A stretch of 64,000 bases of DNA, taken from positions 132 to 64,131 of the forward strand of contig CAYWUI010000015.1 in NCBI GenBank assembly GCA_964461435.1, written 5' to 3'. Positions 6,116 to 27,693 of the stretch are shown in pieces; the first letter of the stretch is position 1; each line of letters opens with the position of its first letter. The translations under genes were made by a program, and so were the position numbers. Under the pieces are notes generated by a model that was not told the origin of the DNA, ran no database searches, and saw nothing but the letters and a program-made list of their open reading frames with translations. This DNA comes from an uncultured Bacteroidales bacterium (GTDB taxonomy: Bacteria; Bacteroidota; Bacteroidia; Bacteroidales; UBA10428).

Positions 6116-6124
6116 GTGTATTTT

Positions 6125-9451: not shown

Positions 9452-9455
9452 TATT

Positions 9456-10313
9456 ATGGATAGAATATTATTTGGTGACAACCAGTTTTTTGCAGTAAAT
9501 CACTTGTCTGATGAAAAATCAAGGGCACAATCGATAAGATTTAAAGATAACAAGGCTATTATTGATGTACTTGATACGGCTATTGAACTGGGGATTATGA
9601 CTTTTATGTGCACCACCCATGATCGCATTGCAGATATCTGTAAACATATACGTGCAAATAATACAAGGTATAAAGATTTTAAAATCTATCCTTGTATGCC
9701 TTATGCCCATAAATATGCTAATGCTGTGACAGAATTGGGAATATTAGGAACACTAAAAGCTTATTTGCCCGGTAATATTTTCAGCACTCTGGCCAAAGGA
9801 GGAATAGCTTTTGCCAAAAAGGATTTTATCTCCATGATGGAATTACTGGTTGATGTAGAGATGAAAATGTTCAAAGGTATAAATACTCCCGTAATCTTCA
9901 TCCAGAATGTGGTAACAGATTTAATTCTGGGCCTGGGAATGAAGGAATTTTTTATTGCGTTTAATAATTATATTAAAAATAAATATAATGCTGAAGCTGG
10001 TTACATAACAATGAATATGCCCATGCTACTTGATACGCTGGAAAGTTGTGGATTGAAAAATCCTATTATCTGCAGTTCAATTAATAAAATTGGTTTCAGA
10101 ATGTCGGGAGGCATTAAACTCTATGAAAAAACAATCAGGGAAAAAAAAATCAGGCCAATTGCAATGCAGGTATTGGCAGCCGGGGCTATACCTCCGGCAG
10201 AGGCATTTGAATATGTTTGCAGGCAAAAAAATATTGAATCAATACTTTTTGGTGCGTCATCCAGAGCACATATTAAACAATCAAGAGATTACATATCAAT
10301 GTATGGCAATTGA
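9456..10313 (+). CDS. Conserved hypothetical protein (possible aldo-keto-reductase-like barrel)
   Basis: MDRILFGDNQFF...AMQVLAAGAI...SILFGAS. ATG 9456 follows GAAAGGAGG. Confidence 0.55.
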   Translation: MDRILFGDNQFFAVNHLSDEKSRAQSIRFKDNKAIIDVLDTAIELGIMTFMCTTHDRIADICKHIRANNTRYKDFKIYPCMPYAHKYANAVTELGILGTLKAYLPGNIFSTLAKGGIAFAKKDFISMMELLVDVEMKMFKGINTPVIFIQNVVTDLILGLGMKEFFIAFNNYIKNKYNAEAGYITMNMPMLLDTLESCGLKNPIICSSINKIGFRMSGGIKLYEKTIREKKIRPIAMQVLAAGAIPPAEAFEYVCRQKNIESILFGASSRAHIKQSRDYISMYGN

Positions 10314-10345
10314 TTAATTATAAATTTTAAGAATAAATATTATAA

Positions 10346-11551
10346 ATGGAAAAAATTTGTATTATGGGTCTTGGCTATATTGGTCTGCCCACTGCCGCCC
10401 TGCTGGCAACAAAAGGATATTATGTACATGGTGTAGATGTAAAAACTGAAGTTGTCGATATAATAAATCGTGGGAAAATACATATTGTTGAACCCGCGTT
10501 AGATGCCTTTGTTAAATCAGCGGTACAGTCTGGCAATCTGAAAGCATCTTCACAGCCTGATTATGCTGACATATTTATAATAACTGTACCAACCCCAATT
10601 GATAAGGACAACAATCCGGATATAGGATATGTGCTGGAAGCAACAAAAGCGATTGCCCCTTACCTTAAACCCGGTAACCTGTTTATCCTTGAATCAACAT
10701 CGCCTGTTGGTACAACAGAGTATTTAGTTGAATTACTAAGAGAATTAGGTGTCAATACCGATAAAATCCATGTTGCATATTCACCCGAACGTGTTCTGCC
10801 CGGACAAACAATGAAAGAACTTGTGGAAAATGACCGGGTAGTTGGGGGTATAACAAAAGAAGCAGCATTAAATGTTATGCTCTTTTATGAATCATTTGTC
10901 CAGGGGGAAGTCCTTATTACAAATGCCAGAACAGCTGAAATGTCCAAATTAACGGAAAATGCATGCAGGGATGTAAATATTGCTTTTGCAAATGAATTAT
11001 CTATAATCTGCGAAAAGTTTGACGTTGATGTCTGGGAATTAATCACTCTTGCCAACAGGCATCCCAGAATTAATATATTAAAACCAGGAAGTGGTGTCGG
11101 AGGTCATTGTATAGCTATCGACCCCTGGTTTTTAGTAGCCAAAGCAAAAGAGGAGGCAAGAATAATAAAAACAGCCAGAGAGATAAATAATTTCAAACCC
11201 AAATGGGTTATTAATAAAACAGAGGAATTAATAAAAAGCTATAAAGAAAAAAATAAAAAAATGCCTTTGATAGCCTGTATGGGTATTGCTTTTAAACCGG
11301 ATATTGATGATTTAAGAGAGTCTCCCTCACTTGAAATTGTGCATGAATTGATAAACAAAGAATATAATATTGTAGTTGCAGAACCTAATATAAAGGAATA
11401 TAAAAATCTGAAACTAATGAATTATGCGGAGGCTGTAAAAAAAGCCGATATAATTGTTTTTCTTGTAGCTCACAAAGAATTCAAAAGTTTAAAAGTAGAT
11501 GAAAATAAATTAATTATAGATATATGCGGGGTAAAAAGCAGATTTAATTAA
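10346..11551 (+). CDS. wecC: UDP-N-acetyl-D-mannosamine dehydrogenase
   Basis: GLGYIGLPTA, LESTSPVGTTE, SPERVLPG, GVGGHCIAIDPWF and FKPDIDDLRESP. Confidence 0.92.
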   Translation: MEKICIMGLGYIGLPTAALLATKGYYVHGVDVKTEVVDIINRGKIHIVEPALDAFVKSAVQSGNLKASSQPDYADIFIITVPTPIDKDNNPDIGYVLEATKAIAPYLKPGNLFILESTSPVGTTEYLVELLRELGVNTDKIHVAYSPERVLPGQTMKELVENDRVVGGITKEAALNVMLFYESFVQGEVLITNARTAEMSKLTENACRDVNIAFANELSIICEKFDVDVWELITLANRHPRINILKPGSGVGGHCIAIDPWFLVAKAKEEARIIKTAREINNFKPKWVINKTEELIKSYKEKNKKMPLIACMGIAFKPDIDDLRESPSLEIVHELINKEYNIVVAEPNIKEYKNLKLMNYAEAVKKADIIVFLVAHKEFKSLKVDENKLIIDICGVKSRFN

Positions 11552-11574: not shown

Positions 11575-12720
11575 ATGAAGAAAATTCTAATAGTCTTCGG
11601 AACAAGGCCGGAAGCTATAAAGATGGCATCGGTCGTGAAAGAATTTGAAAAGTGCAAAGACAAATTTGAATCCAGGGTATGCATCTCTGCACAACACAGG
11701 GAAATGCTGGACCAGGTTTTATCAATTTTTGAGATCGAACCTGATTTTGATCTTAACATTATGAAAGAAAGTCAGGATCTTTATGATATAACAAATGGCG
11801 TTCTGTCAGGTATAAAGGAAGTATTATTGAAATATAATCCCCATCTGGTATTGGTACAGGGTGATACTACAACTTCCACATTTGCTGCCCTGGCTTCATT
11901 CTACCAGAAGATCCCGGTGGGGCATATCGAAGCCGGGTTAAGAACAGGAAATATATATTCCCCCTGGCCTGAAGAAATGAATAGAATGTTGACGCGTTGT
12001 TTGACACTATATCATTTTGCCCCTACTGAAACATCCAGAAGAAATCTTTTAAAAGAAAATGTAGATGAGAAAAGTATCCTGGTAACAGGAAATACGGTCA
12101 TTGATTCACTATATTTCATAATCAACAAAATCAGGGGAAATAATCAGCTCCAGCAAGATTTAAATGAATATATCAGGAAAAGAGGATATCATGTAAATCA
12201 GGGAAAAAAATTTATATTGATAACCGGACATAGAAGGGAAAATTTCGGGGAAGGATTTATCAATATATGTAATGCTATTAAAGAAATAGCTTTTAAATAT
12301 CCGCAGTTCGATTTATTATATCCCGTACATTTAAATCCGAATGTTCAAAAACCGGTATATGATATACTAAATAACATTAATAATGTTTTTTTAATTGAAC
12401 CTATAGAATACCTTCCTTTTGTTTATATAATGAATAATTCATACATAATTTTAACCGATAGCGGAGGAATACAGGAAGAAGCTCCTAGTCTTGGCAAACC
12501 GGTGCTGGTGATGAGAGACACAACCGAAAGACCTGAAGCAGTTGAAGCAGGTACAGTTAAAATTGTTGGAACGGAAGAGAAGAAAATTGTTGATGAATTA
12601 TCGCTATTAATAGACAATAACGAGGAATATCAAAAGATGTCACGTGCACATAATCCTTACGGAGATGGAAATGCAGCGGCCAGAATTGTTAAATTCCTTA
12701 TCAATAACCTGTCAGATTAA
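11575..12720 (+). CDS. wecB: UDP-N-acetylglucosamine 2-epimerase (non-hydrolysing)
   Basis: FGTRPEAIKMA, VQGDTTT, HIEAGLRT, TDSGGIQEEAPSLGKP and NPYGDG. Confidence 0.95.
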   Translation: MKKILIVFGTRPEAIKMASVVKEFEKCKDKFESRVCISAQHREMLDQVLSIFEIEPDFDLNIMKESQDLYDITNGVLSGIKEVLLKYNPHLVLVQGDTTTSTFAALASFYQKIPVGHIEAGLRTGNIYSPWPEEMNRMLTRCLTLYHFAPTETSRRNLLKENVDEKSILVTGNTVIDSLYFIINKIRGNNQLQQDLNEYIRKRGYHVNQGKKFILITGHRRENFGEGFINICNAIKEIAFKYPQFDLLYPVHLNPNVQKPVYDILNNINNVFLIEPIEYLPFVYIMNNSYIILTDSGGIQEEAPSLGKPVLVMRDTTERPEAVEAGTVKIVGTEEKKIVDELSLLIDNNEEYQKMSRAHNPYGDGNAAARIVKFLINNLSD

Positions 12721-13091: not shown

Positions 13092-16000
13092 ATGAAAAAA
13101 ATAGCACTATCTTTCTTTTTCACAATTGCTACTCTGGCAGGTATCTATTCTCAATCTACAGATACATTTAATATTGCTTTCAAGCACGATTTTGAAAATA
13201 ATACTCTTGGAACATACGATTATGATGAATGGTTAAAAGACTGGAACTATCCTGATTGGGCAAACAGACAAGTTCCTCCGACCATTGAACAAAATACTGA
13301 TCCGGAAAATGGCAGTAAAGTTATGAGATGGCATTATCCTAATGGTTCACTTGGGCCCAGCGAAGGAGGCGGACAATGGTTTGCAGAACTGGATAAATCT
13401 TATGATGAATTATACTTTTCTTTCAGAATGAAATTAAAGCCGGGTTTTGTATGGGTTCTGGGAGGAAAAATACATGGATTAATAGCAGAACCGTTTAAAG
13501 GCTTTGAGATTCCTGAATGGGATGAAGGGGCAATGGTATTATTAATGTGGAGAGAAAACAAACCAACATTTTATTACTATCACCAGGATCAGGATCATTA
13601 TTATGGCAATAGTGAAGCATGGAATTATAGTTTAGAATCAGGTAAATGGTATACGGTTACTATTAGAATGGTTATGAATACTCTTAATGAAAATGGTGGG
13701 AATAATGATGGTATCCTGGAAGGATTTATAGACGGCAAATTAGTTTGTCAGATGGGTAATATGCGTTTCAGAAATTTAGAAAGTATAAAAATAAATGTAT
13801 TGGAGATTACTTCATTCTTTGGAGGAGGTGATGATAATTGGAGGGCACAAAGAGATGAATGGATGGATGTTGATGATTTTATTGCTTTTAATTATACAGA
13901 TGCTGTTAATGTACCCAGAGGAAATACTTTAAGCCCAAAGGGCAGAGTGTTATTATTGCCTGGTCATGATGTAAAGCAAACGGTTTTACCTGAAGTTCCC
14001 CAGGATACCAGCGGAACAATCAAAGTCAAAGCATACGGCACTGAAGCAGATGGTGAAAATGCTCATTTCAAATTACTTGTTAATAATAAGTATGTTGGTG
14101 AAACATTTGTTACTTCTGATGTACAAACATATTCATTTGAACCGGATTATGAAATCAATGATGATGATACTATTTATATAGTTTTTGATAATGACAAGTA
14201 TATCTCAAGTGACGAAGACAGAAATTTAGTCATACAGTCGCTGATAATTAATAATAAAAATTATGACCCGGATAGTAAAAATGTAGTATTTACTTATGAT
14301 GCAGCTGAAGGTACTGAAGTAGAATACGGTTCAAATTACCTTTCCTGGAACGGACAACTTGTTTTCTTTATTGGCGAGGATGAAGTCACATTAGATAATA
14401 TATACAGTTTATTTAATCCGGAAGTAGCAGCAGCAAATGACCCGCCGGTTGTTGAAAACAAAAACTTCCTTATCCCGGATAACCTGCAAACAGGAGTTAC
14501 CTTTGGAACAATTAAAGCGACAGATCCGGATATATCTCAGCAATTATCTTATTCAATAATAGGAGGTAATCTTAATAATACATTTATAATTAATTCATCG
14601 GATGGCAAGCTTTCAGTTAATAATTCAGCAGGTTTAAAATCAGCTGATTTATTTAGTGTGCTCATAGAAGCTAAAGATAATGGACCGGGTAACTTGTCAG
14701 ATACAGGGTTAGCAACAATAAATATTCAGCATATTGACACCACTCTCATTAACAACCAGCCTATAATTAGCAGCCAGGAATTCAGTATCAGGGAGGATGA
14801 TGATTTAAGCAGTTTGGCAATAGAAATAGCTGCAATTGATCCTGATATTGATCAAAGTCTGACATATTCAATACTTTCAGGTAACGAGAAAGGTGCCTTT
14901 TATCTTAATCCGTTATCCGGACAACTTACCGTAAGTAATGCATCAAAACTGGATTTTAAGGACCAGGCAGCAATTAATTTAAATGTCCAGGTACAGGATG
15001 ACGGAGAAGGATTTTTAAAGAATTCAGCTGTTGTAACAATTAATCTTATACCTGATATAACAACATTTTATATTGATCCCCAAAATACAAACGATCCGCA
15101 GGAAGATGGCTCTATCGGGCATCCATATGATTCATGGACTGATATATACTGGGAAGAAGGTAACAGCTATTTACAAAAAAAAGGTACAACTGCAAATGAG
15201 GGCAAAATAAATATCTATGCAAGTAACGTGACTCTGGGTGCATACGGACAGGGTGAAAGTCCGGTTATCAACAGCTCGGCAACCGATTTTGCAATCAGGG
15301 CATTTGAAAAATCCGGTGTAACAATTCGGGACCTTAAAATAATAGCTAATGAAGCTATTAGCTGTATTTATTTTTTAGGTGCATCATGTGATAATAACCT
15401 TGTTGAAAAATGCTACCTCGAAGGTGCTGATAACGGACTGAGAATCATAGATGGTAAAACTATAACATTGAGATATAATACTTTCTCTGGCAATAGTGAT
15501 GCCATATATTCTTATGCAGAGACCACTAAAATTTATTATAATGTATTCAAAGAAAATGATACAGGCATCAACATAAGCAGTTACTTATCCAGTACAGAGA
15601 TATACAATAACGTTTTCTATGATAATACAAAAGGTGTGTCTACCTCCTATTCTTCACTGACTATTTATAACAATATATTCTATTTATTAGACAAGGGGGA
15701 TCAGGCAATAAACCATCAGATGGACAACCTGGTTTCGGATAATAATATCTTTTATCCTGAACAGGACGGTTTCCTTGATATCGGTAATAAAAAATATTCA
15801 ACCCTTTATGAATATCAGCAATCAAAGGGATTGGATTTAAATTCATATACTTCCGATCCTTTATTTAAGGATATATACAATGATAATTTCAGCGTAGAAC
15901 AGGAATCTCCTGCAATTAATGGTGGCCGTGATGTCGGATTATTAATGGATTTTTATGGATATAGTGTCCCTTACGGAGGAAAGGCTGACATTGGCCTTAT

Positions 16001-16310
16001 TGAATCACTGGAAGATAATATTATAAGCTCAACTGACCCGTTTGGAATGGGTAGTTCTGATGAATCTCCCCTCATTTTTCCGAATCCTTCGGATGGCAGA
16101 TTCAAAATTTCTTTTGCCAGTACAAATTTTCTGACTTCCGAACTGCAAATTAAGGATATATCAGGAAATTTAATATACAGAGATTATATATCTTCTGATG
16201 ATATTGATCCTACAACTCAAATAGATATTTCAAACGTGCCGAATGGAATCTACCTGCTCCTGCTTGCAATTGATGATAAAGTCTATACACAAAGAATAAT
16301 AATAAATTAA
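13092..16310 (+). CDS. T9SS cargo: PL14-like domain + CBM60-like module + 2 cadherin-like domains + right-handed beta-helix + CTD
   Basis: Signal peptide; LGGKIHGL, LMWR, YYYH and SFFGG; DRNLV module; ATDPD and IDPD cadherin motifs; YNNVFYDN and YNNIF helix rungs; LIFPNPSDGRF...GIYLL CTD. Confidence 0.75.
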   Translation: MKKIALSFFFTIATLAGIYSQSTDTFNIAFKHDFENNTLGTYDYDEWLKDWNYPDWANRQVPPTIEQNTDPENGSKVMRWHYPNGSLGPSEGGGQWFAELDKSYDELYFSFRMKLKPGFVWVLGGKIHGLIAEPFKGFEIPEWDEGAMVLLMWRENKPTFYYYHQDQDHYYGNSEAWNYSLESGKWYTVTIRMVMNTLNENGGNNDGILEGFIDGKLVCQMGNMRFRNLESIKINVLEITSFFGGGDDNWRAQRDEWMDVDDFIAFNYTDAVNVPRGNTLSPKGRVLLLPGHDVKQTVLPEVPQDTSGTIKVKAYGTEADGENAHFKLLVNNKYVGETFVTSDVQTYSFEPDYEINDDDTIYIVFDNDKYISSDEDRNLVIQSLIINNKNYDPDSKNVVFTYDAAEGTEVEYGSNYLSWNGQLVFFIGEDEVTLDNIYSLFNPEVAAANDPPVVENKNFLIPDNLQTGVTFGTIKATDPDISQQLSYSIIGGNLNNTFIINSSDGKLSVNNSAGLKSADLFSVLIEAKDNGPGNLSDTGLATINIQHIDTTLINNQPIISSQEFSIREDDDLSSLAIEIAAIDPDIDQSLTYSILSGNEKGAFYLNPLSGQLTVSNASKLDFKDQAAINLNVQVQDDGEGFLKNSAVVTINLIPDITTFYIDPQNTNDPQEDGSIGHPYDSWTDIYWEEGNSYLQKKGTTANEGKINIYASNVTLGAYGQGESPVINSSATDFAIRAFEKSGVTIRDLKIIANEAISCIYFLGASCDNNLVEKCYLEGADNGLRIIDGKTITLRYNTFSGNSDAIYSYAETTKIYYNVFKENDTGINISSYLSSTEIYNNVFYDNTKGVSTSYSSLTIYNNIFYLLDKGDQAINHQMDNLVSDNNIFYPEQDGFLDIGNKKYSTLYEYQQSKGLDLNSYTSDPLFKDIYNDNFSVEQESPAINGGRDVGLLMDFYGYSVPYGGKADIGLIESLEDNIISSTDPFGMGSSDESPLIFPNPSDGRFKISFASTNFLTSELQIKDISGNLIYRDYISSDDIDPTTQIDISNVPNGIYLLLLAIDDKVYTQRIIIN
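13239..13993 (+). repeat. Direct repeat copy 1 (755 bp) of the PL14-like coding block
   Basis: Aligns to 16628-17382 at offset 3389. 12 mismatches by manual count; 13317-13895 is identical. Confidence 0.95.
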
Positions 16311-16348
16311 GCCTGTCTTACTTAATATAACGACTGCTAATCGTATAT

Positions 16349-16383
16349 GAGCAAAATCCCTTAGATTTTGCTCTTTTTTTTTT
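16349..16383 (+). terminator. Rho-independent terminator
   Basis: GAGCAAAATC-cctta-GATTTTGCTC followed by a T10 run. Confidence 0.85.
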
Positions 16384-16468
16384 AATTTTCATATATCTTT
16401 AAGGAATATATAACCGGGCAATTGTAAATGTTAAATGAGGATTAATAAAACATCAAATCAGAGCTGAT

Positions 16469-17368
16469 ATGAAAAAGGTGTTTGCTTTTTTATCACTTTT
16501 ATTGCTTTACTCCTGCACAAAAATTAAATATGGTACTATTGATACATTTAATATGTTCGATATACATTTTTATCAGGATTTTGAAGATAACACTATAGGA
16601 GAATATTTGGAATCGGAATGGGAAGAAGACTGGAACTATCCTGAGTGGTCAAACAGAGAAGTCCCTCCGACCATTGAACAAAATACTGATCCGGAAAATG
16701 GCAGCAAAGTTATGAGATGGCATTATCCTAATGGTTCACTTGGGCCCAGCGAAGGAGGCGGACAATGGTTTGCAGAACTGGATAAATCTTATGATGAATT
16801 ATACTTTTCTTTCAGAATGAAATTAAAGCCGGGTTTTGTATGGGTTCTGGGAGGAAAAATACATGGATTAATAGCAGAACCGTTTAAAGGCTTTGAGATT
16901 CCTGAATGGGATGAAGGGGCAATGGTATTATTAATGTGGAGAGAAAACAAACCAACATTTTATTACTATCACCAGGATCAGGATCATTATTATGGCAATA
17001 GTGAAGCATGGAATTATAGTTTAGAATCAGGTAAATGGTATACGGTTACTATTAGAATGGTTATGAATACTCTTAATGAAAATGGTGGGAATAATGATGG
17101 TATCCTGGAAGGATTTATAGACGGCAAATTAGTTTGTCAGATGGGTAATATGCGTTTCAGAAATTTAGAAAGTATAAAAATAAATGTATTGGAGATTACT
17201 TCATTCTTTGGAGGAGGTGATGATAATTGGAGGGCACAAAGAGATGAATGGATGGATGTTGATGATTTTATTGCTTTTAATTATGCAGATGATGTTAATG
17301 TACCCAGAGGAAATACTTTAAGCCCCAAGGGCAGAGTGTTATTATTGCCTGGTCATGATGCAGAGTAA
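16469..17368 (+). CDS. Lipoprotein with a single PL14-like domain
   Basis: Lipobox LLYSC (Cys16). Body nearly identical to the N-terminal domain of the 13092 ORF. Confidence 0.8.
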   Translation: MKKVFAFLSLLLLYSCTKIKYGTIDTFNMFDIHFYQDFEDNTIGEYLESEWEEDWNYPEWSNREVPPTIEQNTDPENGSKVMRWHYPNGSLGPSEGGGQWFAELDKSYDELYFSFRMKLKPGFVWVLGGKIHGLIAEPFKGFEIPEWDEGAMVLLMWRENKPTFYYYHQDQDHYYGNSEAWNYSLESGKWYTVTIRMVMNTLNENGGNNDGILEGFIDGKLVCQMGNMRFRNLESIKINVLEITSFFGGGDDNWRAQRDEWMDVDDFIAFNYADDVNVPRGNTLSPKGRVLLLPGHDAE

Positions 17369-17382
17369 ACAGTTTTACCTGA
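16628..17382 (+). repeat. Direct repeat copy 2 (755 bp), running past the lipoprotein stop codon
   Basis: Matches 13239-13993. TAA at 17366 corresponds to CAA at 13977. Confidence 0.95.
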
Positions 17383-17642
17383 TTCAGTTCCCCTTTCTTA
17401 ATATTGTCTATAAAATTTTTCTATTTCATAATTTTTCATTTTCATGAATAATTCAATATATTTAAAAAAATATATTAATACTGACATTACTTTTTACCTT
17501 AAAAAGAATAAAAAGAAAATTTTATTAATAGATGGTCACAAATAAGACAATAATGCCTTGCATATTAGATAATCATGATATAAAATCGTGTACCCGGTAA
17601 ACTGGTATTAGTTAATCAAATAATTTTGAGATTAAAAATCAA

Positions 17643-18494
17643 ATGGATATGGAAAATTTAGAACACATTAATTGTCCGTTTTGCAATGAAAATAGCTATA
17701 CTGACTGGGCAAGTGAAAATAATTTTACAGCAGTTAAATGCAATAATTGTGGCTTTGTTTATGTTAATCCTCGCCCGACTATGAATTCAATTTCTGAGGC
17801 CAATAAAATCGGTGAACATAAATCGAAAGCAGATAGAAAGAATAGAATCAGAAACTTAAGGAGTTACAAAATATTCAATATTTTTAAAATTAATAGTTTT
17901 AAAAAAAGAATAAAACAATTTTTTACAGAAGATGAAATAAAAAACAAAGTTATTTCATGGCTGGATGTTGGTGCCGGTTATGGTGAATTTATTCAGGCAT
18001 TAGGAAAATTAACTTCAAAAAAATCGCATATAAAAGGAATAGAGCCAAGTCTGCCTAAAGCAAAGGTTGCACAAAAGCTAGGTTTGGATATTGAAGATAA
18101 AAAATTAGATGAAATAACAGAATTATTTGAATATATTTCTTTAATTAACGTCTTTTCCCATTTACCTAATCCTGTCGAATTTATTTTGGATTTAAGTAAA
18201 AAGCTTACTCCAAATGGAAAGATCCTTATTGTTACAGGTAATGGAGCAGATATTGCTCCTGAAGATTATCCTGATAATTATAATTTCCCGGATCATTTGG
18301 TATTTACAGGGGAGAGGCATTTATCAGAAATATTGGAAAGAGCTGGTTTTAATATTATAAGAATCAAGAAATATAAAAGTTTTATACCTGAGAATATATT
18401 AGTAAAGTTTATTAAAATGTTATTATCCCGGGATTCAGCAGTAAACAAGGGACCTTTTCGTTCATTATGGGTATTTGCCCAATCTAAAAATTAA
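17643..18494 (+). CDS. Class I SAM-dependent methyltransferase with N-terminal Zn ribbon
   Basis: CPFC...CNNCGFVYVNPRP, WLDVGAGYG, GIEPS and NVFSHL. Confidence 0.85.
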   Translation: MDMENLEHINCPFCNENSYTDWASENNFTAVKCNNCGFVYVNPRPTMNSISEANKIGEHKSKADRKNRIRNLRSYKIFNIFKINSFKKRIKQFFTEDEIKNKVISWLDVGAGYGEFIQALGKLTSKKSHIKGIEPSLPKAKVAQKLGLDIEDKKLDEITELFEYISLINVFSHLPNPVEFILDLSKKLTPNGKILIVTGNGADIAPEDYPDNYNFPDHLVFTGERHLSEILERAGFNIIRIKKYKSFIPENILVKFIKMLLSRDSAVNKGPFRSLWVFAQSKN

Positions 18495-18885
18495 AGCCTC
18501 ACTTTTCTGTAATAAAGCAAGGGGGATTTCTATAACAAACATTCTTTGACCTCCAATAATTTAAATTTATATTTTTTAATATTCCCTTTGGCTCTTAGTT
18601 AAATCAAGCCTTTTCAGATTTTTTCATCTTTCCCGGGTATCTTTATATCCCACAAACCTGCAGGAAAATAAGAGACTATTCATATAGTTAATTGACCAAC
18701 AAAGATTTAGTGGTTCTTATATAAAATGATAAAATAGGACTGGTATAACAATATAATTAAATATTAGAACATTTTTGAAAATTAAAATATTTGCATATTT
18801 TTGTAGCCCCTAATGTGGTTAAAAAAGGGTTAACACCGGGTATTACGTTTATTTTAAAGACATCTATTACTAACTAAACCGAAAA

Positions 18886-21800
18886 ATGTTAAAATTCTCG
18901 TCAGGGGCTTTTATACTATATTTAATATGTATAAGTTTTTCAATCTCTGCCCAGACTACTAACTTCAATGATATTTTTAACATTTATTTCGAACAGGATT
19001 TTGAAAATAATACCTTAGGAACTTATTCCGAAAGCGAGTGGAAAGAAGACTGGAATCACCCTGAATGGTCGAATAGGCAGGTCCCGCCTGAAATTTTAAA
19101 TGACAGTGACATAGTAAATGGTACCAAGGTTATGAGATGGTTATTCCCTGAGGGTTCCGTTGGTCCCGCAGAGGGTGGAGGTCAGTGGTTGGCACCTCTG
19201 AATTCAGCGTTTGATGAGCTTTATTTCTCCTATAGAATAAAATTTAAACCCGGCTTTGAGTGGGTCCTGGGCGGGAAAATACCAGGATTACTGGCAGAGC
19301 CATTTAAAGGTTTTGATCCTCCTGAATGGGATGAAGGGGCAATGATATTATTAATGTGGAGAAGTGACCACAAAATAACATTTTATTACTATCACCATAA
19401 TCAGGATCATATATATGGTGACAGCGAAGGTTGGAATTATAATATAGAACCAGGCATATGGTATACAATTACTATCAGAATTGTGATGAATACTATTAAT
19501 GAAAATGGGGGGAATAATGATGGTATACTGGAAGGATATATAAATGACAAACTTTATTGCCAGGTATCAAATCTTCTCTTTAGAAATTTAAGCAGCATAG
19601 GGATAGATCATTTGCAGATTACATCTTTTTTCGGTGGTGACGGTGAAGAATGGGCTGCAAAAAGAGACGAATGGATTGATGTTGATGATTTTGTTGTTTT
19701 TTCTTACAAGGATGATGTAATAGTACCAAGAGGCAATACTCCCAGCCCTTCAGACAGAGTTTTATTACATCCATATATGTATATTAAAGATTCTTTATGG
19801 AGGGTAAGTTTATCTGCCATGCCCCTGTCAAGCAAAACAATTGAATTAAAATGGAATCATTACCCCATACCTGCAGGTTATGTTATTCAGAGAAAAATAG
19901 CTTCGGATACGGTTTTTACAACAATTGCCAGTCTCCCTTATAAAAATATCACCTATACTGACAAAGAATTACAGCCTTCAACACAGTATGAATACAGGAT
20001 ATTGGCAAACAATATTTATTCGGATACAATTAATGTTACAACATTTCCACCAAATCCTCCTGATCCGCCATCGAATTTATATGCCACTGCTGTACAAAAA
20101 AGGCAAATAAATATTTCATGGACAGATAATTCTGTCAACGAACTGGGTTTTAAGATTGAAAGATCAGTAAGCCCAAATATAAATTTTGTTAATATAGTTA
20201 GCGTAAACTATAATATTCGCAATTATTCAGATATAAACCTTACGCCCAATACAACTTACTATTACCGTGTGTATGCTCATAATGAAGATGGCATTTCAGG
20301 CTATTCCAACGTTTTGGAAGCCAAAACATTGCCACTTGAACCTCCGGCCGCACCAACAGGACTTTCAGCATCTGATATTACAAAAAACTCATTACGTTTA
20401 TCATGGATTGATAACTCCAATAATGAAAACGGATTCGCAATTATGTCTTCATCTACATCAGGCATAGGTTTTGTCCAGGTAGCTACTGTTGGTCCTAACA
20501 CAACTTCATATAACTATGAAGGATTATTCCCGGATTACGGATGTTATTATATTGTAAGAGCTTTTAACAATGACGGGAATTCAGGGTACTCTAACGAATT
20601 GTATGCTAAGACTCTTCCCCTTAATCCTCCTGCTGCTCCTGCGGAATTACACACATCGGATATAACAAAGCATTCAATTAACCTTGTATGGACAGATAAT
20701 TCCGATAATGAGGATGGTTTTATTATTGAACGTTCCATTTCATTGACAGGTGGTTTTACTCAGGTTGCAAATGTTGAATCGAACATCGCCGCTTATACGG
20801 ACAATGATTTGACTCCTGGTTATACTTATTATTATAGAATTAAGGCATTTAATGAAGATGGAACTTCTGATTATTCCAATATTTTGGAAATAAAAACCTT
20901 ATCCCTGAATCCCCCTGATGCTCCTTCTTCTTTGAAAGCAGATACTATTAATTATAATTGGTTAACTATTGTCTGGTCAGATAATTCAACTAATGAATCT
21001 GGATTCAGAATAGAAAGAACCCTGGATACAAACAATGTTTTTATTTTTTTAGCTGATGTTGATGGCCCTGACATAACGGAATTTACGGATACGGGATTAA
21101 TTGATAATACGACTTACTACTATAGAGTACAAGCATATAATGATGACGGATTTTCGGAGTTTTCAATTATATTGAAAACTGTAACTCCGAAATTGAACCC
21201 CCCGCAGCCACCGTCTTTGCTTTCACCATCGCAAGTCACGCTAAATACAATTACATTAAACTGGAAAGATAACTCAAGCGATGAGACAGGATTTATTATT
21301 AAAAGAGCTGCCGCACCTTATATAACATTTGAAACAATAAAGACAGCAAGTGCTAATGCTACAAGTTTTATTGATGAAAATCTGAATCCCAGTACAACTT
21401 ACCATTACCAGGTTAATGCGATAAATAAGGCCGGTAACTCTGACAATAGCAATACAGCAATTGCATCAACCTTGTCCGTTTCTGAATCTAATAGAATCTG
21501 GGACGGAATTATAGCATACTATAATTTTAACTTTAGTTCAGACAATATTATATATGATTATTCAAACTATGATAAACCTTTGAATTTGGCAATAGGAGAC
21601 ACATCAGGAATAATATGGAATGCAAATAATAAACTTGAACTGGTATCAAACAATTATGTTAAATCAATAAATCCGGCAACAAAAATAGTCAATGCCTGCA
21701 AAAATACCAATGAAATTACTGTTGAATGCTGGATTAAGCCGTCCTTGTTCAGCTCATCAAATCCTGAAAATATTTTAAGTATCTCAAATAATAATAATGA

Positions 21801-22473
21801 TATTTGTGCTAACCTGGCCCAGGAGCATATATCCGTAAATGATAATAAGTCATATAAATATTTAATAAGTCTGAGGACCCGGGCCACAGCTTCAAATGGT
21901 TCACCAAATCTATATACCAGGGATGAGTTAACATACCTTTCACTGCATCATATTGTATATTTTAAGAATGACAATGGTATTGAAAAGCTTTTTATAAATG
22001 GCAAAGAAGCAGCCAGCAGTATCCGGCCCCATGATTTTGAAAACTGGGATAATAATTCTTACTTAATATTGGGGAATGACCCGGATTTAAATTCCCCCTG
22101 GAATGGTACATATTACACTGTTGCTATATATAATACAGCCCTTTCAAAAGATCAGATAATTACTAATTATAATGCCGGCCCCAAAGACAATCTGGCAAAA
22201 TCAGTTATTAATTACGACATTGAGATTTCTCCAAATCCTTCTGAAGGTATTATAAATTTGAGAATAGTTCCGCTGTCTGCAGATGAATATGCCGGTAAAA
22301 CAATGATTCAGATCTGTGATATGATGGGTGATATAAAATTTTCTGAAATAATTGAAGATCCAAACAGGGAACTGACAAAATCCTTTGACTTTTCTGAATT
22401 CAAAAAAGGTATCTATATATTACGAGTCATTACAAATGATCATTTTAACTCCGGAAAATTCGTAATTCAATAA
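18886..22473 (+). CDS. T9SS cargo: PL14-like domain + 6 FN3 repeats + LamG-like domain + CTD
   Basis: LGGKIPGL and LMWR; six FN3 units, five carrying W.DNS.NE.GF-like motifs; TVECWIKP and VAIYNTALS jelly-roll; ISPNPSEG...KGIYILRV CTD. Confidence 0.8.
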   Translation: MLKFSSGAFILYLICISFSISAQTTNFNDIFNIYFEQDFENNTLGTYSESEWKEDWNHPEWSNRQVPPEILNDSDIVNGTKVMRWLFPEGSVGPAEGGGQWLAPLNSAFDELYFSYRIKFKPGFEWVLGGKIPGLLAEPFKGFDPPEWDEGAMILLMWRSDHKITFYYYHHNQDHIYGDSEGWNYNIEPGIWYTITIRIVMNTINENGGNNDGILEGYINDKLYCQVSNLLFRNLSSIGIDHLQITSFFGGDGEEWAAKRDEWIDVDDFVVFSYKDDVIVPRGNTPSPSDRVLLHPYMYIKDSLWRVSLSAMPLSSKTIELKWNHYPIPAGYVIQRKIASDTVFTTIASLPYKNITYTDKELQPSTQYEYRILANNIYSDTINVTTFPPNPPDPPSNLYATAVQKRQINISWTDNSVNELGFKIERSVSPNINFVNIVSVNYNIRNYSDINLTPNTTYYYRVYAHNEDGISGYSNVLEAKTLPLEPPAAPTGLSASDITKNSLRLSWIDNSNNENGFAIMSSSTSGIGFVQVATVGPNTTSYNYEGLFPDYGCYYIVRAFNNDGNSGYSNELYAKTLPLNPPAAPAELHTSDITKHSINLVWTDNSDNEDGFIIERSISLTGGFTQVANVESNIAAYTDNDLTPGYTYYYRIKAFNEDGTSDYSNILEIKTLSLNPPDAPSSLKADTINYNWLTIVWSDNSTNESGFRIERTLDTNNVFIFLADVDGPDITEFTDTGLIDNTTYYYRVQAYNDDGFSEFSIILKTVTPKLNPPQPPSLLSPSQVTLNTITLNWKDNSSDETGFIIKRAAAPYITFETIKTASANATSFIDENLNPSTTYHYQVNAINKAGNSDNSNTAIASTLSVSESNRIWDGIIAYYNFNFSSDNIIYDYSNYDKPLNLAIGDTSGIIWNANNKLELVSNNYVKSINPATKIVNACKNTNEITVECWIKPSLFSSSNPENILSISNNNNDICANLAQEHISVNDNKSYKYLISLRTRATASNGSPNLYTRDELTYLSLHHIVYFKNDNGIEKLFINGKEAASSIRPHDFENWDNNSYLILGNDPDLNSPWNGTYYTVAIYNTALSKDQIITNYNAGPKDNLAKSVINYDIEISPNPSEGIINLRIVPLSADEYAGKTMIQICDMMGDIKFSEIIEDPNRELTKSFDFSEFKKGIYILRVITNDHFNSGKFVIQ

Positions 22474-22764
22474 AATCTCCTCTGACATAAATATAAAAAT
22501 TATAAGAATCCCCACCAGATTATCTTGAGCTTATTTAATAGATCCCATATATATTATTACTTTCAGTACTTAGCAGTTAATAATACCTAATTTATTCATG
22601 CTTATTTGAATTACTTGTGACCCTAAATTGATGTAAAACTAACTTCTGTGTAACAAAATCATCAGTTAATCAAAATGTCAGAAAATAACAGGCTAAATAT
22701 TAGAATCTATCGTATTTATAGTATTATTTTTGAATCATTAATTATTAAAATTTTAATTAATAAT

Positions 22765-24234
22765 ATGTCTCAAACACTAAAAACAGATATGAATTCATAC
22801 AACCAGCTTAAGGATACTAAAAACCCGAAAAAAAGAAAAAATCGTAAAGATATAAATCCGTTATTTTCAGTACTTGATATCGTTGTCACAATACTTTCTT
22901 ATTTCTTTGCATATTTTTTAACAAATCTTTTGCATACAAATTATTTCAGGTTCACACAGGAATATGTTATAATGCTTATGCTTATTATACCGACATGGGC
23001 TATTCTGCTCCAGATACTGAATCTTACAAAAATTCCGAGAACTCACTCATATATGTCTATTTTCTTTAGTTTTTTAAACTTTAATGCTATCGGATTCGCT
23101 TTAATATTCTTGTACAAACATTTATTTCATTTAACTGTTTTCAGCCATTATTTCATAATATCTTTCTCGTTAATAAATCTCTTCTCCCTCTATATTTTCA
23201 GAATGTTAACCTACAAGGTATTTAAGTATTACAGATCTACAGGTCATAATATTCATAACGTATTAATTTTTGCAGATGGAAATTCCGATAAGTTTATTGA
23301 TAACATAATTAATCATAAGGAATGGGGATTCAGGATATTAATGATTTTAACCAATTCAGAAAACATAAAAAATAAATATAGCAATAGTATTAAAATCTTA
23401 CCTGATAAAATATCAATAAAAAATCTGCTTAATATTGATATTATTGATGAAGTAATTTATTGTAAGAGCAGCATAGAGGAAGAAAGACTCAGAGATTTAA
23501 TTGAAACTTGCCAGGAAGTTGGGGTTACCTTCAGGATGCAGTCCGATCTTAATCCTGTAACAATAGCAAATACGCATCTGACACATTTCGAAAACATACC
23601 TTTTATAACCTTTATGAATACTCCTAAAAACAGGTTAGCTCTTGCCTGGAAATCTTTTAGCGAATTCTGGATTTCATTCGTAATAATTTTTCTTTTATCA
23701 CCTTTTCTTTTAATTATTTCACTTTTAATAAAGCTCTCAAGTCAGGGTCCGGTGATATTTAAGCAGGAAAGAGTAGGCTTAAGGGGCAGAAAGTTTTACA
23801 TCTACAAGTTCAGAACAATGGTTTATAATGCTGAAACCCTTAAATCATCTTTGCTGGATCAAAATGAAACTGACGGGCCCGTATTCAAGATAAAAAATGA
23901 TCCACGCATAACCAGGATTGGAAAGTTTTTGAGAAAAACCGGACTGGATGAATTACCTCAATTATTCAATGTTCTTAAGGGTGAGATGTCACTTATAGGA
24001 CCTCGTCCGCCGTTACCCCAGGAAGTTGAAAAATATGAAAGATGGCAGTTAAAAAGACTGTCCATGAAGCCTGGCATTACCTGTACATGGCAGGTTATAC
24101 CCAACAGGAATAATGTAATGTTTGAGAAATGGATGAAACTGGATATTCAATATATCGAAAACTGGTCAATAAAAAAGGATTTTATGCTTTTTTTCAAAAC
24201 ATTAAGAACTTTAATTAGCGGTTCTGGTCATTAA
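22765..24234 (+). CDS. Undecaprenyl-phosphate sugar phosphotransferase (WcaJ/WbaP-like)
   Basis: N-terminal TM helices; FKQERVG, KFRTM, DPRITRIG, LDELPQLFNVLKGEMSLIGPRP. Start uncertain (22675, 22765 or 22789). Confidence 0.9.
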   Translation: MSQTLKTDMNSYNQLKDTKNPKKRKNRKDINPLFSVLDIVVTILSYFFAYFLTNLLHTNYFRFTQEYVIMLMLIIPTWAILLQILNLTKIPRTHSYMSIFFSFLNFNAIGFALIFLYKHLFHLTVFSHYFIISFSLINLFSLYIFRMLTYKVFKYYRSTGHNIHNVLIFADGNSDKFIDNIINHKEWGFRILMILTNSENIKNKYSNSIKILPDKISIKNLLNIDIIDEVIYCKSSIEEERLRDLIETCQEVGVTFRMQSDLNPVTIANTHLTHFENIPFITFMNTPKNRLALAWKSFSEFWISFVIIFLLSPFLLIISLLIKLSSQGPVIFKQERVGLRGRKFYIYKFRTMVYNAETLKSSLLDQNETDGPVFKIKNDPRITRIGKFLRKTGLDELPQLFNVLKGEMSLIGPRPPLPQEVEKYERWQLKRLSMKPGITCTWQVIPNRNNVMFEKWMKLDIQYIENWSIKKDFMLFFKTLRTLISGSGH

Positions 24235-24443: not shown

Positions 24444-25214
24444 ATGGCCAAACTTAAGTTTAACAAAATCAAAATAATTGCATACTTATCAATTTTAATT
24501 TCTGCTGGCGCATGCACTCCTACATCCAAATTAACATATGTATTAAATAAAGGAGATGCTGCAAATAAGAACCAGTTCCATAATGATCGGTCTGAAAAGA
24601 CAATTCAGCCATATGATTACTTGTATATTAAAATTTACAGTTTGGATGAACAGACTAATTACGTGTTCAGAGAAGAAAGGTATTCCAGCTACGAAACCGA
24701 ACTGGTTAGTTATGCTGTTGATGATAAAGGGAATATAGATTTCCCGTTTATAGGAAGTATTAATGTAAAAGATCTTACGATTAACCAGGCCAAGGAAAGA
24801 ATTGAACAATCTTTAAACCGTCAGCTAAATAATGTTTCGGTAAGAGTGAGATTTGTCAGTAATAAAATCACTATTTTGGGGGAAGTAGGTCGCCCGGGCG
24901 ATTATTCATTTTATGATGAAAAAATAAATATCTTCCAGACTATAGGATTAGCCAATGGTATTACACCTTATGGCAATAAAACCAATATAACACTGATTCG
25001 TGAAAAAGATAATACTATAAAGTATTACTATTTGGATCTTACCGATAAAAAGATTGTGGAGTCAGAAAATTACTATCTTCTGCCCAATGATATTGTTATA
25101 GTAAATCCGATTAGTGCTAAATACAGAGAACTCAGAACTTATTCGTTATCCCTGACATCAGCAATTGTATCGACCTTACTTAGCACGGTAACTTTAATAT
25201 ATGTATTTAAATAA
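24444..25214 (+). CDS. wza: Polysaccharide export outer-membrane lipoprotein
   Basis: Lipobox SAGAC; IQPYDYL, GNIDFPFIG, ITILGEV and YLLPNDIV. Confidence 0.85.
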   Translation: MAKLKFNKIKIIAYLSILISAGACTPTSKLTYVLNKGDAANKNQFHNDRSEKTIQPYDYLYIKIYSLDEQTNYVFREERYSSYETELVSYAVDDKGNIDFPFIGSINVKDLTINQAKERIEQSLNRQLNNVSVRVRFVSNKITILGEVGRPGDYSFYDEKINIFQTIGLANGITPYGNKTNITLIREKDNTIKYYYLDLTDKKIVESENYYLLPNDIVIVNPISAKYRELRTYSLSLTSAIVSTLLSTVTLIYVFK

Positions 25215-25233: not shown

Positions 25234-27693
25234 ATGAACAATTCAGATAAAATCTTCCAGAGCAATATTAACTACAAAAAGATATTCAAGAAGTTATTGA
25301 ATTATAAGAAACAATGCCTGTTCATTATTATTATATTTCTGATTTTAACTTTCCTTGTAAATAAATTTTCACCTGCAAAATATGCAAACTATACTACCTT
25401 GTATATTGGCGATAACCAGCAGAATTCATTTATGAGCGGTACTGATGATATAATGAAGGGATTTGGATTATTTACAGGGAAAAACAATATTGATAATGAA
25501 ATAGAGATATTGCAATCATTTACGCTAATAAAAAATGTAATTAAGGACCTGGACCTAAAAACAACCTATGTAACTTTTAATAACTCTACCCTGTCTGGCT
25601 TTTTATTCAATACCCCATTGTGCAAAAAGTATGATATCTATACTGATTCTCCCATCAAAGTTGTTATAGATCAGTCAGTTCCTCAGACAGTCTACTTAAA
25701 CTTCAGGGTTGTGTTTTTAAATGACAATGAGTTTTATCTTGAAACCACAGGCAAGGATGTCAGACTGTATAATTTTATTGATGATAATATTGTATCAATT
25801 GAAAAGAATATATCTTTCAGAGGCAGGTTTAAATTTGGAGATGAAATAAAAACAAGAGCTTTCTGTTTCAGGATAATTAAAAAGGAAAATTTCGATCCTT
25901 CCTTTACTAAAGAAAACAATCTATATTTCTTTTTCAATGACATTAACGCATTGACCTCACGATACCAGGCTATTTTAAACGCTGAAGCCACGTCACAAAC
26001 ATCTTCATTAATAAAAATCAGTTTCAAAGGGAAAAATCCTTATATGGTCACAGACTTTCTAAATAGCCTGACTGCGTTATATTTAGAGAGAAATATAGAA
26101 AGAAAAAACAGAATAGCTTTAAGTACAGTTAACTTTATTGATTCACAGATTTCCAATATTGCTGATTCGCTAAGCTCTGCTGAATTCAGGCTTAAAAGTT
26201 TCAGGTCGGCTCACAATGTAATGGATTTAAGTTTCCAGGGACAACAAATAGTTGAAAAGATGAGTGAAATGGAAACTGAAAAAGAAAATTTAAATGTGCA
26301 AAAACAGTATTATTCATATCTTAAAACCTATCTGTCTAATAGTATGGAGGTTAGTGATTTATTAGCCCCGCCGTCATCAATGAGGGTATCTGATCCCATT
26401 TTAACAAATCTTATATCTCAGATGCTTACATTAAGTTCCAAAAGAGCAAGTTTACTTAGAACTAATGCGAATAAAGACAATCTGTATTTATCGGATATTA
26501 ATATTCAGATCGATAATATAAGGAAGACCATAAGCGAAAATGTAAATAATACATTAAATACAATTGATAATAGCATCAAGGAAATTAACTACAGGATTGC
26601 AGGCCTTTCAAATCAAATATCTCAAATGCCAAAAACCGAGTTGCAGCTCAAGGGGATAGAAAGAAAATTTAAGCTTAACGATAATATATACACTTTTCTT
26701 CTTCAGAAGCGCTCCGAAGCCCAAATTGCCAGGGCATCAAGTATGCCTGACTATGAAATAATCGATCCTGCGCGTATTTCAGTTGCTGAAATGGTATCTC
26801 CTAAAAAGAAATTAAATTACATCGTTGCATTATTCCTGGGCTTGTTATTACCAACATCAGTGGTTATGTTAAGAGACTTCCTTAATAATAAAATTACGGA
26901 TCCTGAGCAAGTGGAATCTGGAACGAAATTTCCGATTATTGGCCGCGTATTTCACAACTTCAGGAGAACAAAGCTTGTTGTTAATGATCGTCCAAACTCA
27001 TCTGTCACAGAATCATTCCGGGCAGTAAGAACCAATTTTGAATTTTTCTCGGATGGCGGGAAAAAACAGGTTTTGCTGATTACATCGGCCACAAGTGGTG
27101 AGGGAAAGACGTTCTGTTCAATTAATCTTGCATCTGTATTTGCCTTAAACGGTCACAAAACGGTGTTACTGGAGTTTGATCTGAGGCGTCCCAAGATTCA
27201 TGAAGAATTTGGCTCAAGTAACATGATTGGCATAAATTCATATCTTATAGAAAAAGCTATTATTGAAGATATAATCATGCCTACACAAATTGAGAATCTT
27301 GATCTGATATCTGCAGGACCTGCGGCACCAAATCCTGCTGAATTGATAAGTTCGCAGAGAACCGGGGAATTTATTGAGAAATTAAAGGAAATGTACGATT
27401 ATATTATTATCGACTCGGCTCCTGCAGGAATTATTGCTGAGACATTCGTATTAATGAAATATTCGGATATTAACATTTTTGTTGTAAGGATGGACAAAAC
27501 TATCAGAGAAGCCTTTGTCAATACATCAAAAGCATTTGAAAATAACAAATTCACTAATGTGTCTATTCTGTTAAATGATATTAATATCAAAAGGGAATCA
27601 TACAAGTATGGCTATGATAATAAGTATTATACCGATGATAGAAGGAGAGGTATAATAGCCAGATTATTCACCGGTAAAAGAAAAGCTTCCTGA
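25234..27693 (+). CDS. wzc: Polysaccharide copolymerase / BY-kinase
   Basis: Two TM segments; ESFRAVRTN, Walker A SGEGKT, IIIDSAP and Tyr-rich tail YKYGYDNKYY. Confidence 0.9.
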   Translation: MNNSDKIFQSNINYKKIFKKLLNYKKQCLFIIIIFLILTFLVNKFSPAKYANYTTLYIGDNQQNSFMSGTDDIMKGFGLFTGKNNIDNEIEILQSFTLIKNVIKDLDLKTTYVTFNNSTLSGFLFNTPLCKKYDIYTDSPIKVVIDQSVPQTVYLNFRVVFLNDNEFYLETTGKDVRLYNFIDDNIVSIEKNISFRGRFKFGDEIKTRAFCFRIIKKENFDPSFTKENNLYFFFNDINALTSRYQAILNAEATSQTSSLIKISFKGKNPYMVTDFLNSLTALYLERNIERKNRIALSTVNFIDSQISNIADSLSSAEFRLKSFRSAHNVMDLSFQGQQIVEKMSEMETEKENLNVQKQYYSYLKTYLSNSMEVSDLLAPPSSMRVSDPILTNLISQMLTLSSKRASLLRTNANKDNLYLSDINIQIDNIRKTISENVNNTLNTIDNSIKEINYRIAGLSNQISQMPKTELQLKGIERKFKLNDNIYTFLLQKRSEAQIARASSMPDYEIIDPARISVAEMVSPKKKLNYIVALFLGLLLPTSVVMLRDFLNNKITDPEQVESGTKFPIIGRVFHNFRRTKLVVNDRPNSSVTESFRAVRTNFEFFSDGGKKQVLLITSATSGEGKTFCSINLASVFALNGHKTVLLEFDLRRPKIHEEFGSSNMIGINSYLIEKAIIEDIIMPTQIENLDLISAGPAAPNPAELISSQRTGEFIEKLKEMYDYIIIDSAPAGIIAETFVLMKYSDINIFVVRMDKTIREAFVNTSKAFENNKFTNVSILLNDINIKRESYKYGYDNKYYTDDRRRGIIARLFTGKRKAS

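Follow-up and report, generated by a model that had tools for sequence, protein, structure and literature searches.

We identified a set of three putative capsule-processing genes in a 64,000-nt stretch of DNA from an uncultured Bacteroidales bacterium (contig CAYWUI010000015.1; the whole stretch is called the window below). The genes, designated A, B and C, share an N-terminal domain related to polysaccharide lyase (PL) families 14 and 36, and they are situated in an exopolysaccharide (EPS) locus between the sugar-nucleotide genes wecC/wecB and the genes for an initiating transferase, Wza and Wzc. We propose that they encode dedicated processing proteins for the locus's own polymer, which would contain N-acetylmannosaminuronic acid (ManNAcA), and that catalysis has been retained; the probability that we assign to this reading is about 0.5. 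The concept of a depolymerase encoded in a biosynthetic locus is already known. What is new is the fold family, the routing of one head to the type IX secretion system (T9SS) and to a lipoprotein, the breadth of the linkage, and an active site that lacks the canonical Arg.

The region from 13092 to 22473 contains four open reading frames (ORFs), all on the plus strand, i.e. gene A (13092-16310, 1072 aa), gene B (16469-17368, a 299-aa lipoprotein), a methyltransferase gene, and gene C (18886-22473, 1195 aa). The Pfam model PF21294 (Polysacc_lyase_14) matched the N-terminal parts of A, B and C with 73.8, 78.5 and 91.2 bits, respectively (Pfam cut-off 27), and exactly three copies of the domain were found in the 64 kb using tblastn. 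In gene A, a signal peptide and the head (aa 72-258, nt 13305-13865) are followed by a domain similar to carbohydrate-binding module (CBM) family 60 (nt 14016-14291, 53 bits), two cadherin-like domains (nt 14463-15041), a right-handed beta-helix of the NosD type (about nt 15042-15911), and a type-A T9SS C-terminal domain (CTD; Por_Secre_tail, nt 16074-16304). The PL14/PL36-like domain is the sole domain of gene B (aa 76-262, nt 16694-17254). In gene C, the signal peptide and head (aa 79-264, nt 19120-19677) precede six FN3 repeats (about nt 19798-21480; five were detected by Pfam, six by reading the PPxxP...W.DNS units), a LamG/Laminin_G_3 domain (nt 21691-22158), and again a type-A T9SS CTD (Por_Secre_tail, nt 22225-22467). 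These assignments were made with Pfam, and for gene B and the tail of gene A also with AlphaFold2 (AF2) models and Foldseek. A preliminary description of this DNA had proposed that one domain heads two T9SS cargo proteins with different tails and one bare lipoprotein, and that all three lie between wecB and the initiating transferase/wza/wzc genes. Its ORF coordinates were exact, Pfam agreed with the architecture, and Pfam and NCBIfam matches confirmed the flanking genes; in addition, all four motifs that it had listed, GGKI[H/P]GL, LMWR, YYYH and SFFGG, were found in A, B and C.

The three proteins are predicted to reach different destinations. Por_Secre_tail (PF18962) scored 48.4 bits in gene A and 34.3 bits in gene C (cut-off 27), and N-terminal Sec signal peptides were read from both sequences. 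As had been suggested before, A and C are thus predicted T9SS cargo, bound for the cell surface or the medium. GldD is the only component of the T9SS/gliding machinery that is encoded in the window. Gene B contains a lipobox that reads LLLYS (MKKVFAFLSLLLLYS) directly before Cys16 (codon 16514-16516), the Cys is kept in 7 out of 7 full-length orthologues, and the residues following it are TKIKYG. Surface export of Bacteroidota lipoproteins is signalled by K-(D/E)2 or Q-A-(D/E)2 after the Cys (PMC5080379). Neither signal was present in gene B, in agreement with the earlier remark that an obvious acidic signal is lacking, and none was present in the seven full-length orthologues. The product of gene B is best predicted to be an outer-membrane lipoprotein that faces the periplasm; this orientation had already been considered, and while the missing export signal speaks for it, the location itself has the status of a prediction.

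The fold of the head was analyzed with an AF2 model of gene B that was built on a 23-sequence alignment (predicted local distance difference test, pLDDT, 89; predicted template modelling score, pTM, 0.86). When the model was compared with the PDB using Foldseek, it matched Aly36B (PL36; template modelling (TM) score 0.78), AkAly30 (PL14, 5gmt; TM 0.73, E 1e-13), vAL-1 (PL14, 3gne; TM 0.73, E 2e-12), and the glucuronan lyase of T. reesei (PL20; TM 0.58). The top matches were all uronate lyases, and generic lectin and glucanase jelly rolls ranked below them. At the sequence level, the best PDB match of gene B alone was Aly36B (E 2e-5), whereas a family profile ranked AkAly30 (E 6e-38, 134 bits) ahead of Aly36B (7e-21, 78 bits) and vAL-1 (2e-15, 60 bits). 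The identities between the heads of the window and these three enzymes are 15-21%. Because a fragment of Aly36B scores 71 bits on PF21294, "PL14" is used here for the PL14/PL36 superfamily; also in a recent survey, the hidden Markov models (HMMs) of PL14 and PL36 overlapped and were hard to separate (PMC11890756). The initial label "PL14-like" is therefore correct at the superfamily level, at which the HMM and structure checks agree, but a choice of PL14 over PL36 is not established. Members of the family are rare, with 8,103 of 1.84 billion cluster representatives (E <= 1e-3); the family is nevertheless large and mostly uncharacterised, and many members are proteins of 900-1,100 aa with an N-terminal domain. 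The C-terminal region of gene A was modelled as a right-handed beta-helix (pLDDT 76). Its Foldseek neighbours were all carbohydrate-active (GH136, PL9, CE8, PL6, VexL and RbmB; TM about 0.5), and VexL (6fi2) was a generic beta-helix match at rank 45. Assignment of an enzymatic activity to this beta-helix was considered and rejected, because the structural likeness is generic only and a PDB sequence search was uninformative.

The genes surrounding A, B and C give a hint as to the polymer that is made. Upstream of gene A, a wecC-like UDP-N-acetyl-D-mannosamine dehydrogenase, which yields UDP-ManNAcA (10346-11551, plus strand; NF008286, 537 bits versus a cut-off of 459; Pfam UDPG_MGDP_dh N-terminal, central and C-terminal domains), and a wecB gene for a non-hydrolysing UDP-GlcNAc 2-epimerase (11575-12720, plus strand; TIGR00236, 502 bits versus 210; Pfam Epimerase_2, E 9e-117) both exceed the NCBIfam equivalog cut-offs. 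This supports that the locus makes the uronic acid precursor UDP-ManNAcA. Downstream of gene C, the plus strand encodes an initiating polyprenyl-phosphate sugar-phosphate transferase (22675-24234; Pfam Bac_transf/EPS_sugtrans; TIGR03025, 379 bits versus 296), a Wza-like outer-membrane polysaccharide export protein (24444-25214; Pfam Poly_export and SLBB_2), and a Wzc-like polysaccharide co-polymerase/tyrosine autokinase (25234-27693; Pfam Wzz, GNVR and AAA_31). Beyond wzc, housekeeping genes (PcrB, ACPS, GldD, CNNM) are located on the opposite strand. SusC/D genes or genes for uronate catabolism were not found in the 64-kb window.

The preliminary description depended on a linkage of the domain with capsule loci in relatives, and such a linkage was indeed observed in about 11 independent loci, including loci from outside the Bacteroidota. 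Close metagenomic counterparts, L013/L014 (86% identity) and L016 (64%), have the same gene order as the window (DUF354, GFO_IDH_MocA, an ORF of no known family, wecC, wecB, A, B, methyltransferase); gene A orthologues of identical architecture are present in L013 and L016, and the methyltransferase is kept at the same position in L014 and L016. The architecture of gene C recurs in L003, L004 (as two tandem copies), L005 and L024. In the first three, which are metagenome-assembled genomes (MAGs) of Bacteroidales, the PL14-FN3-LamG-CTD genes lie beside Bac_transf-wza-wzc or among GT2/GT4 glycosyltransferase genes. L024 (10001-19403) contains three tandem PL14-headed T9SS genes among glycosyltransferase, WecG and Bac_transf genes; their tails are FN3/LamG, FN3/NosD and FN3/LamG, all three retain the canonical Ser-x-Arg, and they form a natural comparison set for the trio of the window. 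Small PL14 genes are also found in Wzx/Wzy loci of distant lineages: in L023, such a gene is situated directly upstream of Bac_transf-wza-wzc, and L020 and L025 stem from lineages with signal sequences of a non-Bacteroidota appearance. The linkage is ambiguous in L022, where the PL14 gene adjoins CE4, MBOAT and acyl-carrier genes. The Bacteroidales MAG L001 contains a PL14 lipoprotein gene, and a PL14-less beta-helix-FN3-LamG-CTD gene lies just upstream of its Bac_transf-wza-wzc. The L001 lipoprotein orthologue (10001-10894) is interrupted by two in-frame stops, which replace a Gly and a Ser of the relatives, and it is either a pseudogene or the result of a MAG consensus error. Many of the EPS-linked relatives keep the canonical Ser-x-Arg; the association thus belongs to the family and not just to the variant subclade to which the window belongs.

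The recurrence of this linkage, together with the missing context of a polysaccharide utilization locus or uronate catabolism, supports a role on the own polymer. It also bears on the possibility that the three proteins are foraging enzymes for external polyuronides, e.g. alginate, glucuronan or plant and algal uronans, and that their genes landed in a variable capsule locus by chance. The characterised homologues are all alginate or glucuronan lyases (PMC11890756), multidomain T9SS-secreted carbohydrate-active enzymes with CBMs are typical of Bacteroidota foraging, and the DNA stems from salt-marsh metagenomes. However, SusC/D, transporter and uronate-catabolic genes are not nearby, the EPS linkage is kept in about 11 loci of diverged lineages and different locus types, and a periplasm-facing copy makes little sense for a polymer whose size would keep it out of the periplasm unless a Sus system is present. 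Foraging therefore appears improbable to us.

A second possibility is that the locus makes an anionic glycan that anchors type-A T9SS cargo by a covalent bond, similar to the anionic lipopolysaccharide (A-LPS) of Porphyromonas gingivalis, so that A and C would be cargo encoded beside their anchor polymer and the PL14-like head would be aimed elsewhere, e.g. at the matrix of a competitor. In P. gingivalis, A-LPS holds T9SS cargo at the cell surface, and the cargo is set free in a wbaP mutant (PMC5445135). The locus of the window encodes an initiating transferase as well as GFO_IDH_MocA dehydrogenases of the WbpB-like kind, and several different T9SS cargo genes cluster in loci of this kind. Yet neither the lipoprotein copy nor the small non-T9SS PL14 genes in non-Bacteroidota Wzx/Wzy loci would be explained, and Wza/Wzc points to a high-molecular-weight exported polymer rather than to an LPS-type anchor. 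We regard this explanation as the least probable of those considered.

Next to the linkage, the active site bears on the interpretation. The framework common to the solved enzymes vAL-1, AkAly30 and Aly36B is GGK ... [S/T]-x-R-x-M-W ... Y-x-Y. The site residues are K197, S219, R221 and Y233/Y235 in vAL-1 and K99, S126, R128 and Y140/Y142 in AkAly30, and both numberings fit the spacing of the PDB sequences. For Aly36B, the titles of the PDB entries 6kcv and 6kzk name K143, M171 and Y185 as mutated residues, T167 and R169 were placed by sequence spacing on a strand that reads TLRMMW, and R169 is presumably the functional Arg. The equivalent residues of gene B are K130 (Lys), M152 (Ser/Thr), L154 (Arg), M156 (Met) and Y165/Y167 (Tyr-x-Tyr), and K143, M171 and Y185 of Aly36B align with K130, M156 and Y165. 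The catalytic Lys is kept in the GGKI motif of all three copies. K130 and Y165 of gene B are invariant among the 23 homologues, and the conservation of Y167 (in YYYH) reaches at least 90%. The strand that carries the replaced residues reads GAM[V/I]LLMW in the window, and its alignment, anchored on MW, is ungapped. In 132 motifs of the family, the Arg position is occupied by 75 Arg, 19 Gly, 17 Leu and 8 Ser, and Leu is common to the window, L013, L016 and L023. The Arg in LMWR is located four residues downstream of the canonical Arg position and is not conserved among the orthologues. The heads are under purifying selection (dN/dS 0.14-0.29), which indicates that the Met-x-Leu state is a maintained variant and not a sign of decay.

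Several results weigh against retained catalysis on the own polymer. First, the canonical Ser-x-Arg is replaced by Met-x-Leu in A, B, C and their closest relatives, and the Arg is reportedly required for the activity of vAL-1 and AkAly30. Second, the ManNAcA in the polymer need not be 4-linked. Third, family members without EPS linkage exist, namely in L019 and in the Fibrobacteres locus L008. Fourth, PL14-less cadherin/beta-helix/CTD and beta-helix/FN3/LamG/CTD proteins are encoded at equivalent positions of EPS loci; for example, homologues of the gene A tail (cadherin/beta-helix/T9SS-CTD) without a PL14 head lie beside Bac_transf-wza-wzc in L026 and L027. The head is thus not obligatory for the role of the tails, and the tails are EPS-locus proteins in their own right to which the head is a modular addition. 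The gene calls in L026 and L027 are fragmented, probably due to frameshifts in the long-read assemblies.

The replacement of Ser-x-Arg renders lyase activity uncertain and makes a lectin-like role a live rival. In this case, the Arg-less heads would be non-catalytic modules that bind the own polyuronide and tether or organise the capsule, A and C acting as T9SS-anchored points of attachment or cohesion and B as a periplasmic polymer chaperone or sensor. Such a role would fit the loss of the canonical Ser and Arg, now Met and Leu, from A, B, C and their nearest relatives while the fold is retained, the adhesin-like tails (cadherin, FN3, LamG, CBM60), and the tail-only T9SS proteins in the same kind of loci. 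A precedent is WceF, which behaves lectin-like toward its own EPS and agglutinates with it (PMC7949094). On the other hand, the catalytic Lys and the Tyr-x-Tyr-His are kept under purifying selection, and Arg-bearing relatives at equivalent positions in EPS loci point to an ancestral enzymatic role. In addition, Dong et al. 2019, as cited in PMC8618178, report in their title that the Lys of Aly36B acts as base as well as acid. We therefore consider a purely lectin-like function unlikely, but a more serious contender than the other alternatives. For the remodelling of a ManNAcA-containing self-polysaccharide, as it had originally been put forward, this means that the linkage and the genes for UDP-ManNAcA speak in its favour, whereas clean-up and remodelling remain conjectural in view of the lost Ser-x-Arg.

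The domain architecture, the fold, the conserved residues, the purifying selection and the linkage are shown by the sequence data, whereas substrate, chemistry, localisation and physiological role are proposals. If A, B and C process the own polymer, the following mechanism could be envisaged. The polymer would be exported by the Wzx/Wzy-Wza/Wzc locus and contain ManNAcA. The concave cleft of the beta-jelly-roll head would bind the polyuronide, and the head would most likely cleave a 4-linked uronate by beta-elimination via the Lys (K130 in gene B) and the Tyr-x-Tyr (Y165/Y167). One head would be used in two compartments, the periplasm (B) and the surface or medium (A and C, via the T9SS). Gene B would be a guard similar to AlgL or VexL that removes or trims chains escaping from the Wza/Wzc conduit. 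In A and C, long spacers would carry the head together with tails that bind carbohydrates (CBM60/cadherin/beta-helix in A, FN3x6/LamG in C), and these proteins may trim, release or reorganise the capsule.

Several known systems resemble parts of this arrangement. The PL5 enzyme AlgL of the Pseudomonas/Azotobacter alginate operon is a periplasmic lyase that clears polymer escaping from the export complex (PMC4444821). Like the role proposed for gene B, it is a lyase encoded within the biosynthetic cluster of its polyuronide, but its (alpha/alpha) toroid fold is unrelated, the pathway is synthase-dependent instead of Wzx/Wzy-Wza/Wzc, and AlgL is soluble instead of lipid-anchored and without T9SS-delivered paralogues. 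VexL from the Vi-antigen loci of Burkholderiales is a capsule-locus periplasmic endolyase specific for its own poly-GalNAcA (PMC6003464). Its substrate, a polymer of an N-acetyl-aminouronic acid, makes it the chemically closest analogue with respect to a ManNAcA polymer, although VexL folds as a pectate-lyase-like beta-helix, acts in a pathway with an ABC transporter and is present in a single copy. WceF from the Pantoea stewartan cluster and RbmB from the Vibrio polysaccharide (VPS) cluster are matrix modifiers of EPS clusters that act extracellularly, as proposed for A and C. In contrast to A and C, the hydrolase WceF and RbmB, a lyase according to its deposition, are beta-helix proteins, are not T9SS cargo and lack a jelly-roll head.

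With regard to fold and sequence, the nearest enzymes are Aly36B (from Chitinophaga), AkAly30 and vAL-1, which share the beta-jelly-roll and the framework GGK...MW...YxY(H)...NT...FFGG with the heads of the window. Aly36B is a polymannuronate (polyM) lyase from another member of the Bacteroidota, and ManNAcA is the 2-acetamido analogue of mannuronate. In contrast to the window heads, these enzymes keep the [S/T]-x-R, and they are catabolic or, in the viral case, cell-wall-degrading; we know of none that is encoded in a locus for EPS biosynthesis. Another T9SS-delivered surface protein is RemA of Flavobacterium johnsoniae, which is mentioned in PMC5445135; it has a lectin domain, and an interaction with the polysaccharide that the cell itself exports via Wza/Wzc has been suggested for it. 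Unlike the proteins discussed here, RemA is a gliding adhesin that is not known to have a lyase-like domain or to be encoded in an EPS locus. A literature search for a PL14 lyase or a T9SS lyase in a capsule locus yielded no described example, and we know of no locus-encoded depolymerase described for Bacteroidota Wza/Wzc capsules, of none with a jelly-roll of the PL14/PL36 type, and of none delivered by the T9SS.

The heads of A and B have been subject to sequence exchange. The plus-strand tract 13237-13993 in gene A and its partner 16626-17382 differ by 9 mismatches in 757 nt and contain an exact 579-nt core (13317-13895 equals 16706-17284); the tract extends beyond the stop codon of gene B (TAA), which in gene A reads CAA. 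With an identity of 61% in L016, the A head and B must be regarded as old paralogues. Gene B of the window is 84% identical to the A head of L016 and 64% identical to B of L016. From these identities, we infer that the core of gene B was overwritten by A-type sequence, most recently over the 579 identical nt. Furthermore, the synonymous divergence between the A heads of the window and L016 (13092-13850 versus 6276-7030; dS 0.23-0.29) is three- to five-fold below that of the flanking genes wecB, wecC and GFO_IDH_MocA (0.6-1.15) or of gene A's own tail (1-3), which suggests that the A head was exchanged between lineages.

An assembly artefact was considered as the origin of the identical A/B tract and was rejected. 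In four salt-marsh metagenome runs, independent contigs end at 13304/13942 and 16693/17331, i.e. at both edges of both copies, as is expected of a true repeat on either side of a single-copy segment, and the relatives share the gene order without the identity. These results show that the arrangement is real. Sequences nearly identical to the window are present in many salt-marsh metagenome runs, and the closest relatives in genome collections are uncultured Bacteroidales MAGs.

A wider reading combines these results, and we put it forward tentatively, regarding it as unlikely. A large uncharacterised branch of PL14/PL36 would be a dedicated accessory of Wzx/Wzy-type EPS loci in Bacteroidota and other phyla. 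In the subclade of the window, the active-site strand would have been rebuilt from Ser-x-Arg to a hydrophobic Met-x-Leu stripe, which might recognise or cleave a polymer of an N-acetylated or carboxyl-masked aminouronic acid by a mechanism that does not depend on charge neutralisation. The head would be a mobile cassette that is subject to gene conversion between lipoprotein and T9SS scaffolds and is exchanged between lineages, so that, in several compartments, one specificity could keep pace with a capsule that evolves fast.

Locus-encoded depolymerases such as AlgL, VexL, WceF and RbmB govern chain length, periplasmic safety, matrix viscosity and dispersal. If the linkage described here is functional, thousands of "PL14" matches that metagenome surveys now count as alginate-degrading potential would have to be annotated as capsule-processing proteins instead. 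In this case, the family would also offer ready-made specific enzymes or lectins for ManNAcA-type polymers, and a natural experiment on the dispensability of the canonical Arg in jelly-roll lyases.

The fourth ORF between wecB and the initiating transferase gene (17643-18494, plus strand) encodes a cytoplasmic S-adenosylmethionine-dependent methyltransferase (Pfam Methyltransf_23) with an N-terminal Cys4 zinc-ribbon. A conserved two-gene module of PL14 and methyltransferase genes was considered, because the two are adjacent in the window, L014, L016, L025 and L001. It was rejected as the methyltransferases of L025 and L001 are not orthologous, and there is thus no specific support for a methyl-esterified uronate as an explanation of the lost Arg. 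Downstream of gene A, a strong hairpin resembling an intrinsic terminator (16349-16383, plus strand) has a stem of 10 bp and then a T10 stretch. A strain variant from a single marsh metagenome (run X5) has 12 nt in place of 93 nt that include this hairpin (16323-16415), and co-transcription of A and B may be altered in it. Scans for sigma-70 promoters and for the Bacteroidetes -7 motif (TAnnTTTG) gave counts no higher than in shuffled sequences, and among the indexed sequencing runs there were none of RNA.

Some further genes of the window deserve mention. In the sugar-nucleotide region, three conserved cytoplasmic ORFs without a Pfam or NCBIfam family (within 5042-7297 and at 9435-10313) encode proteins of 357 aa (starting with TFDYELYGDG, deacetylase-like), 393 aa and 292 aa, and have orthologues in L016. 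The 393-aa ORF (6116-7297) was considered as a GH88-like unsaturated-uronyl hydrolase that would act on lyase products, and rejected, as it scored 19 bits versus a threshold of 26.6 and has no signal peptide. At 1978-4125, a zinc-type alcohol dehydrogenase and a GFO_IDH_MocA oxidoreductase are joined in one protein of 715 aa, an unusual fusion that adjoins YdjC-like and AAC(3)-like (Antibiotic_NAT) genes and is probably part of an uncommon amino-sugar pathway. Two large proteins are unrelated to the lyase-like genes, a 1129-aa TPR-SpoIIE (PP2C) phosphatase on the minus strand (41916-45308) and a 776-aa WD40-caspase (Peptidase_C14) protein on the plus strand (46938-49268).

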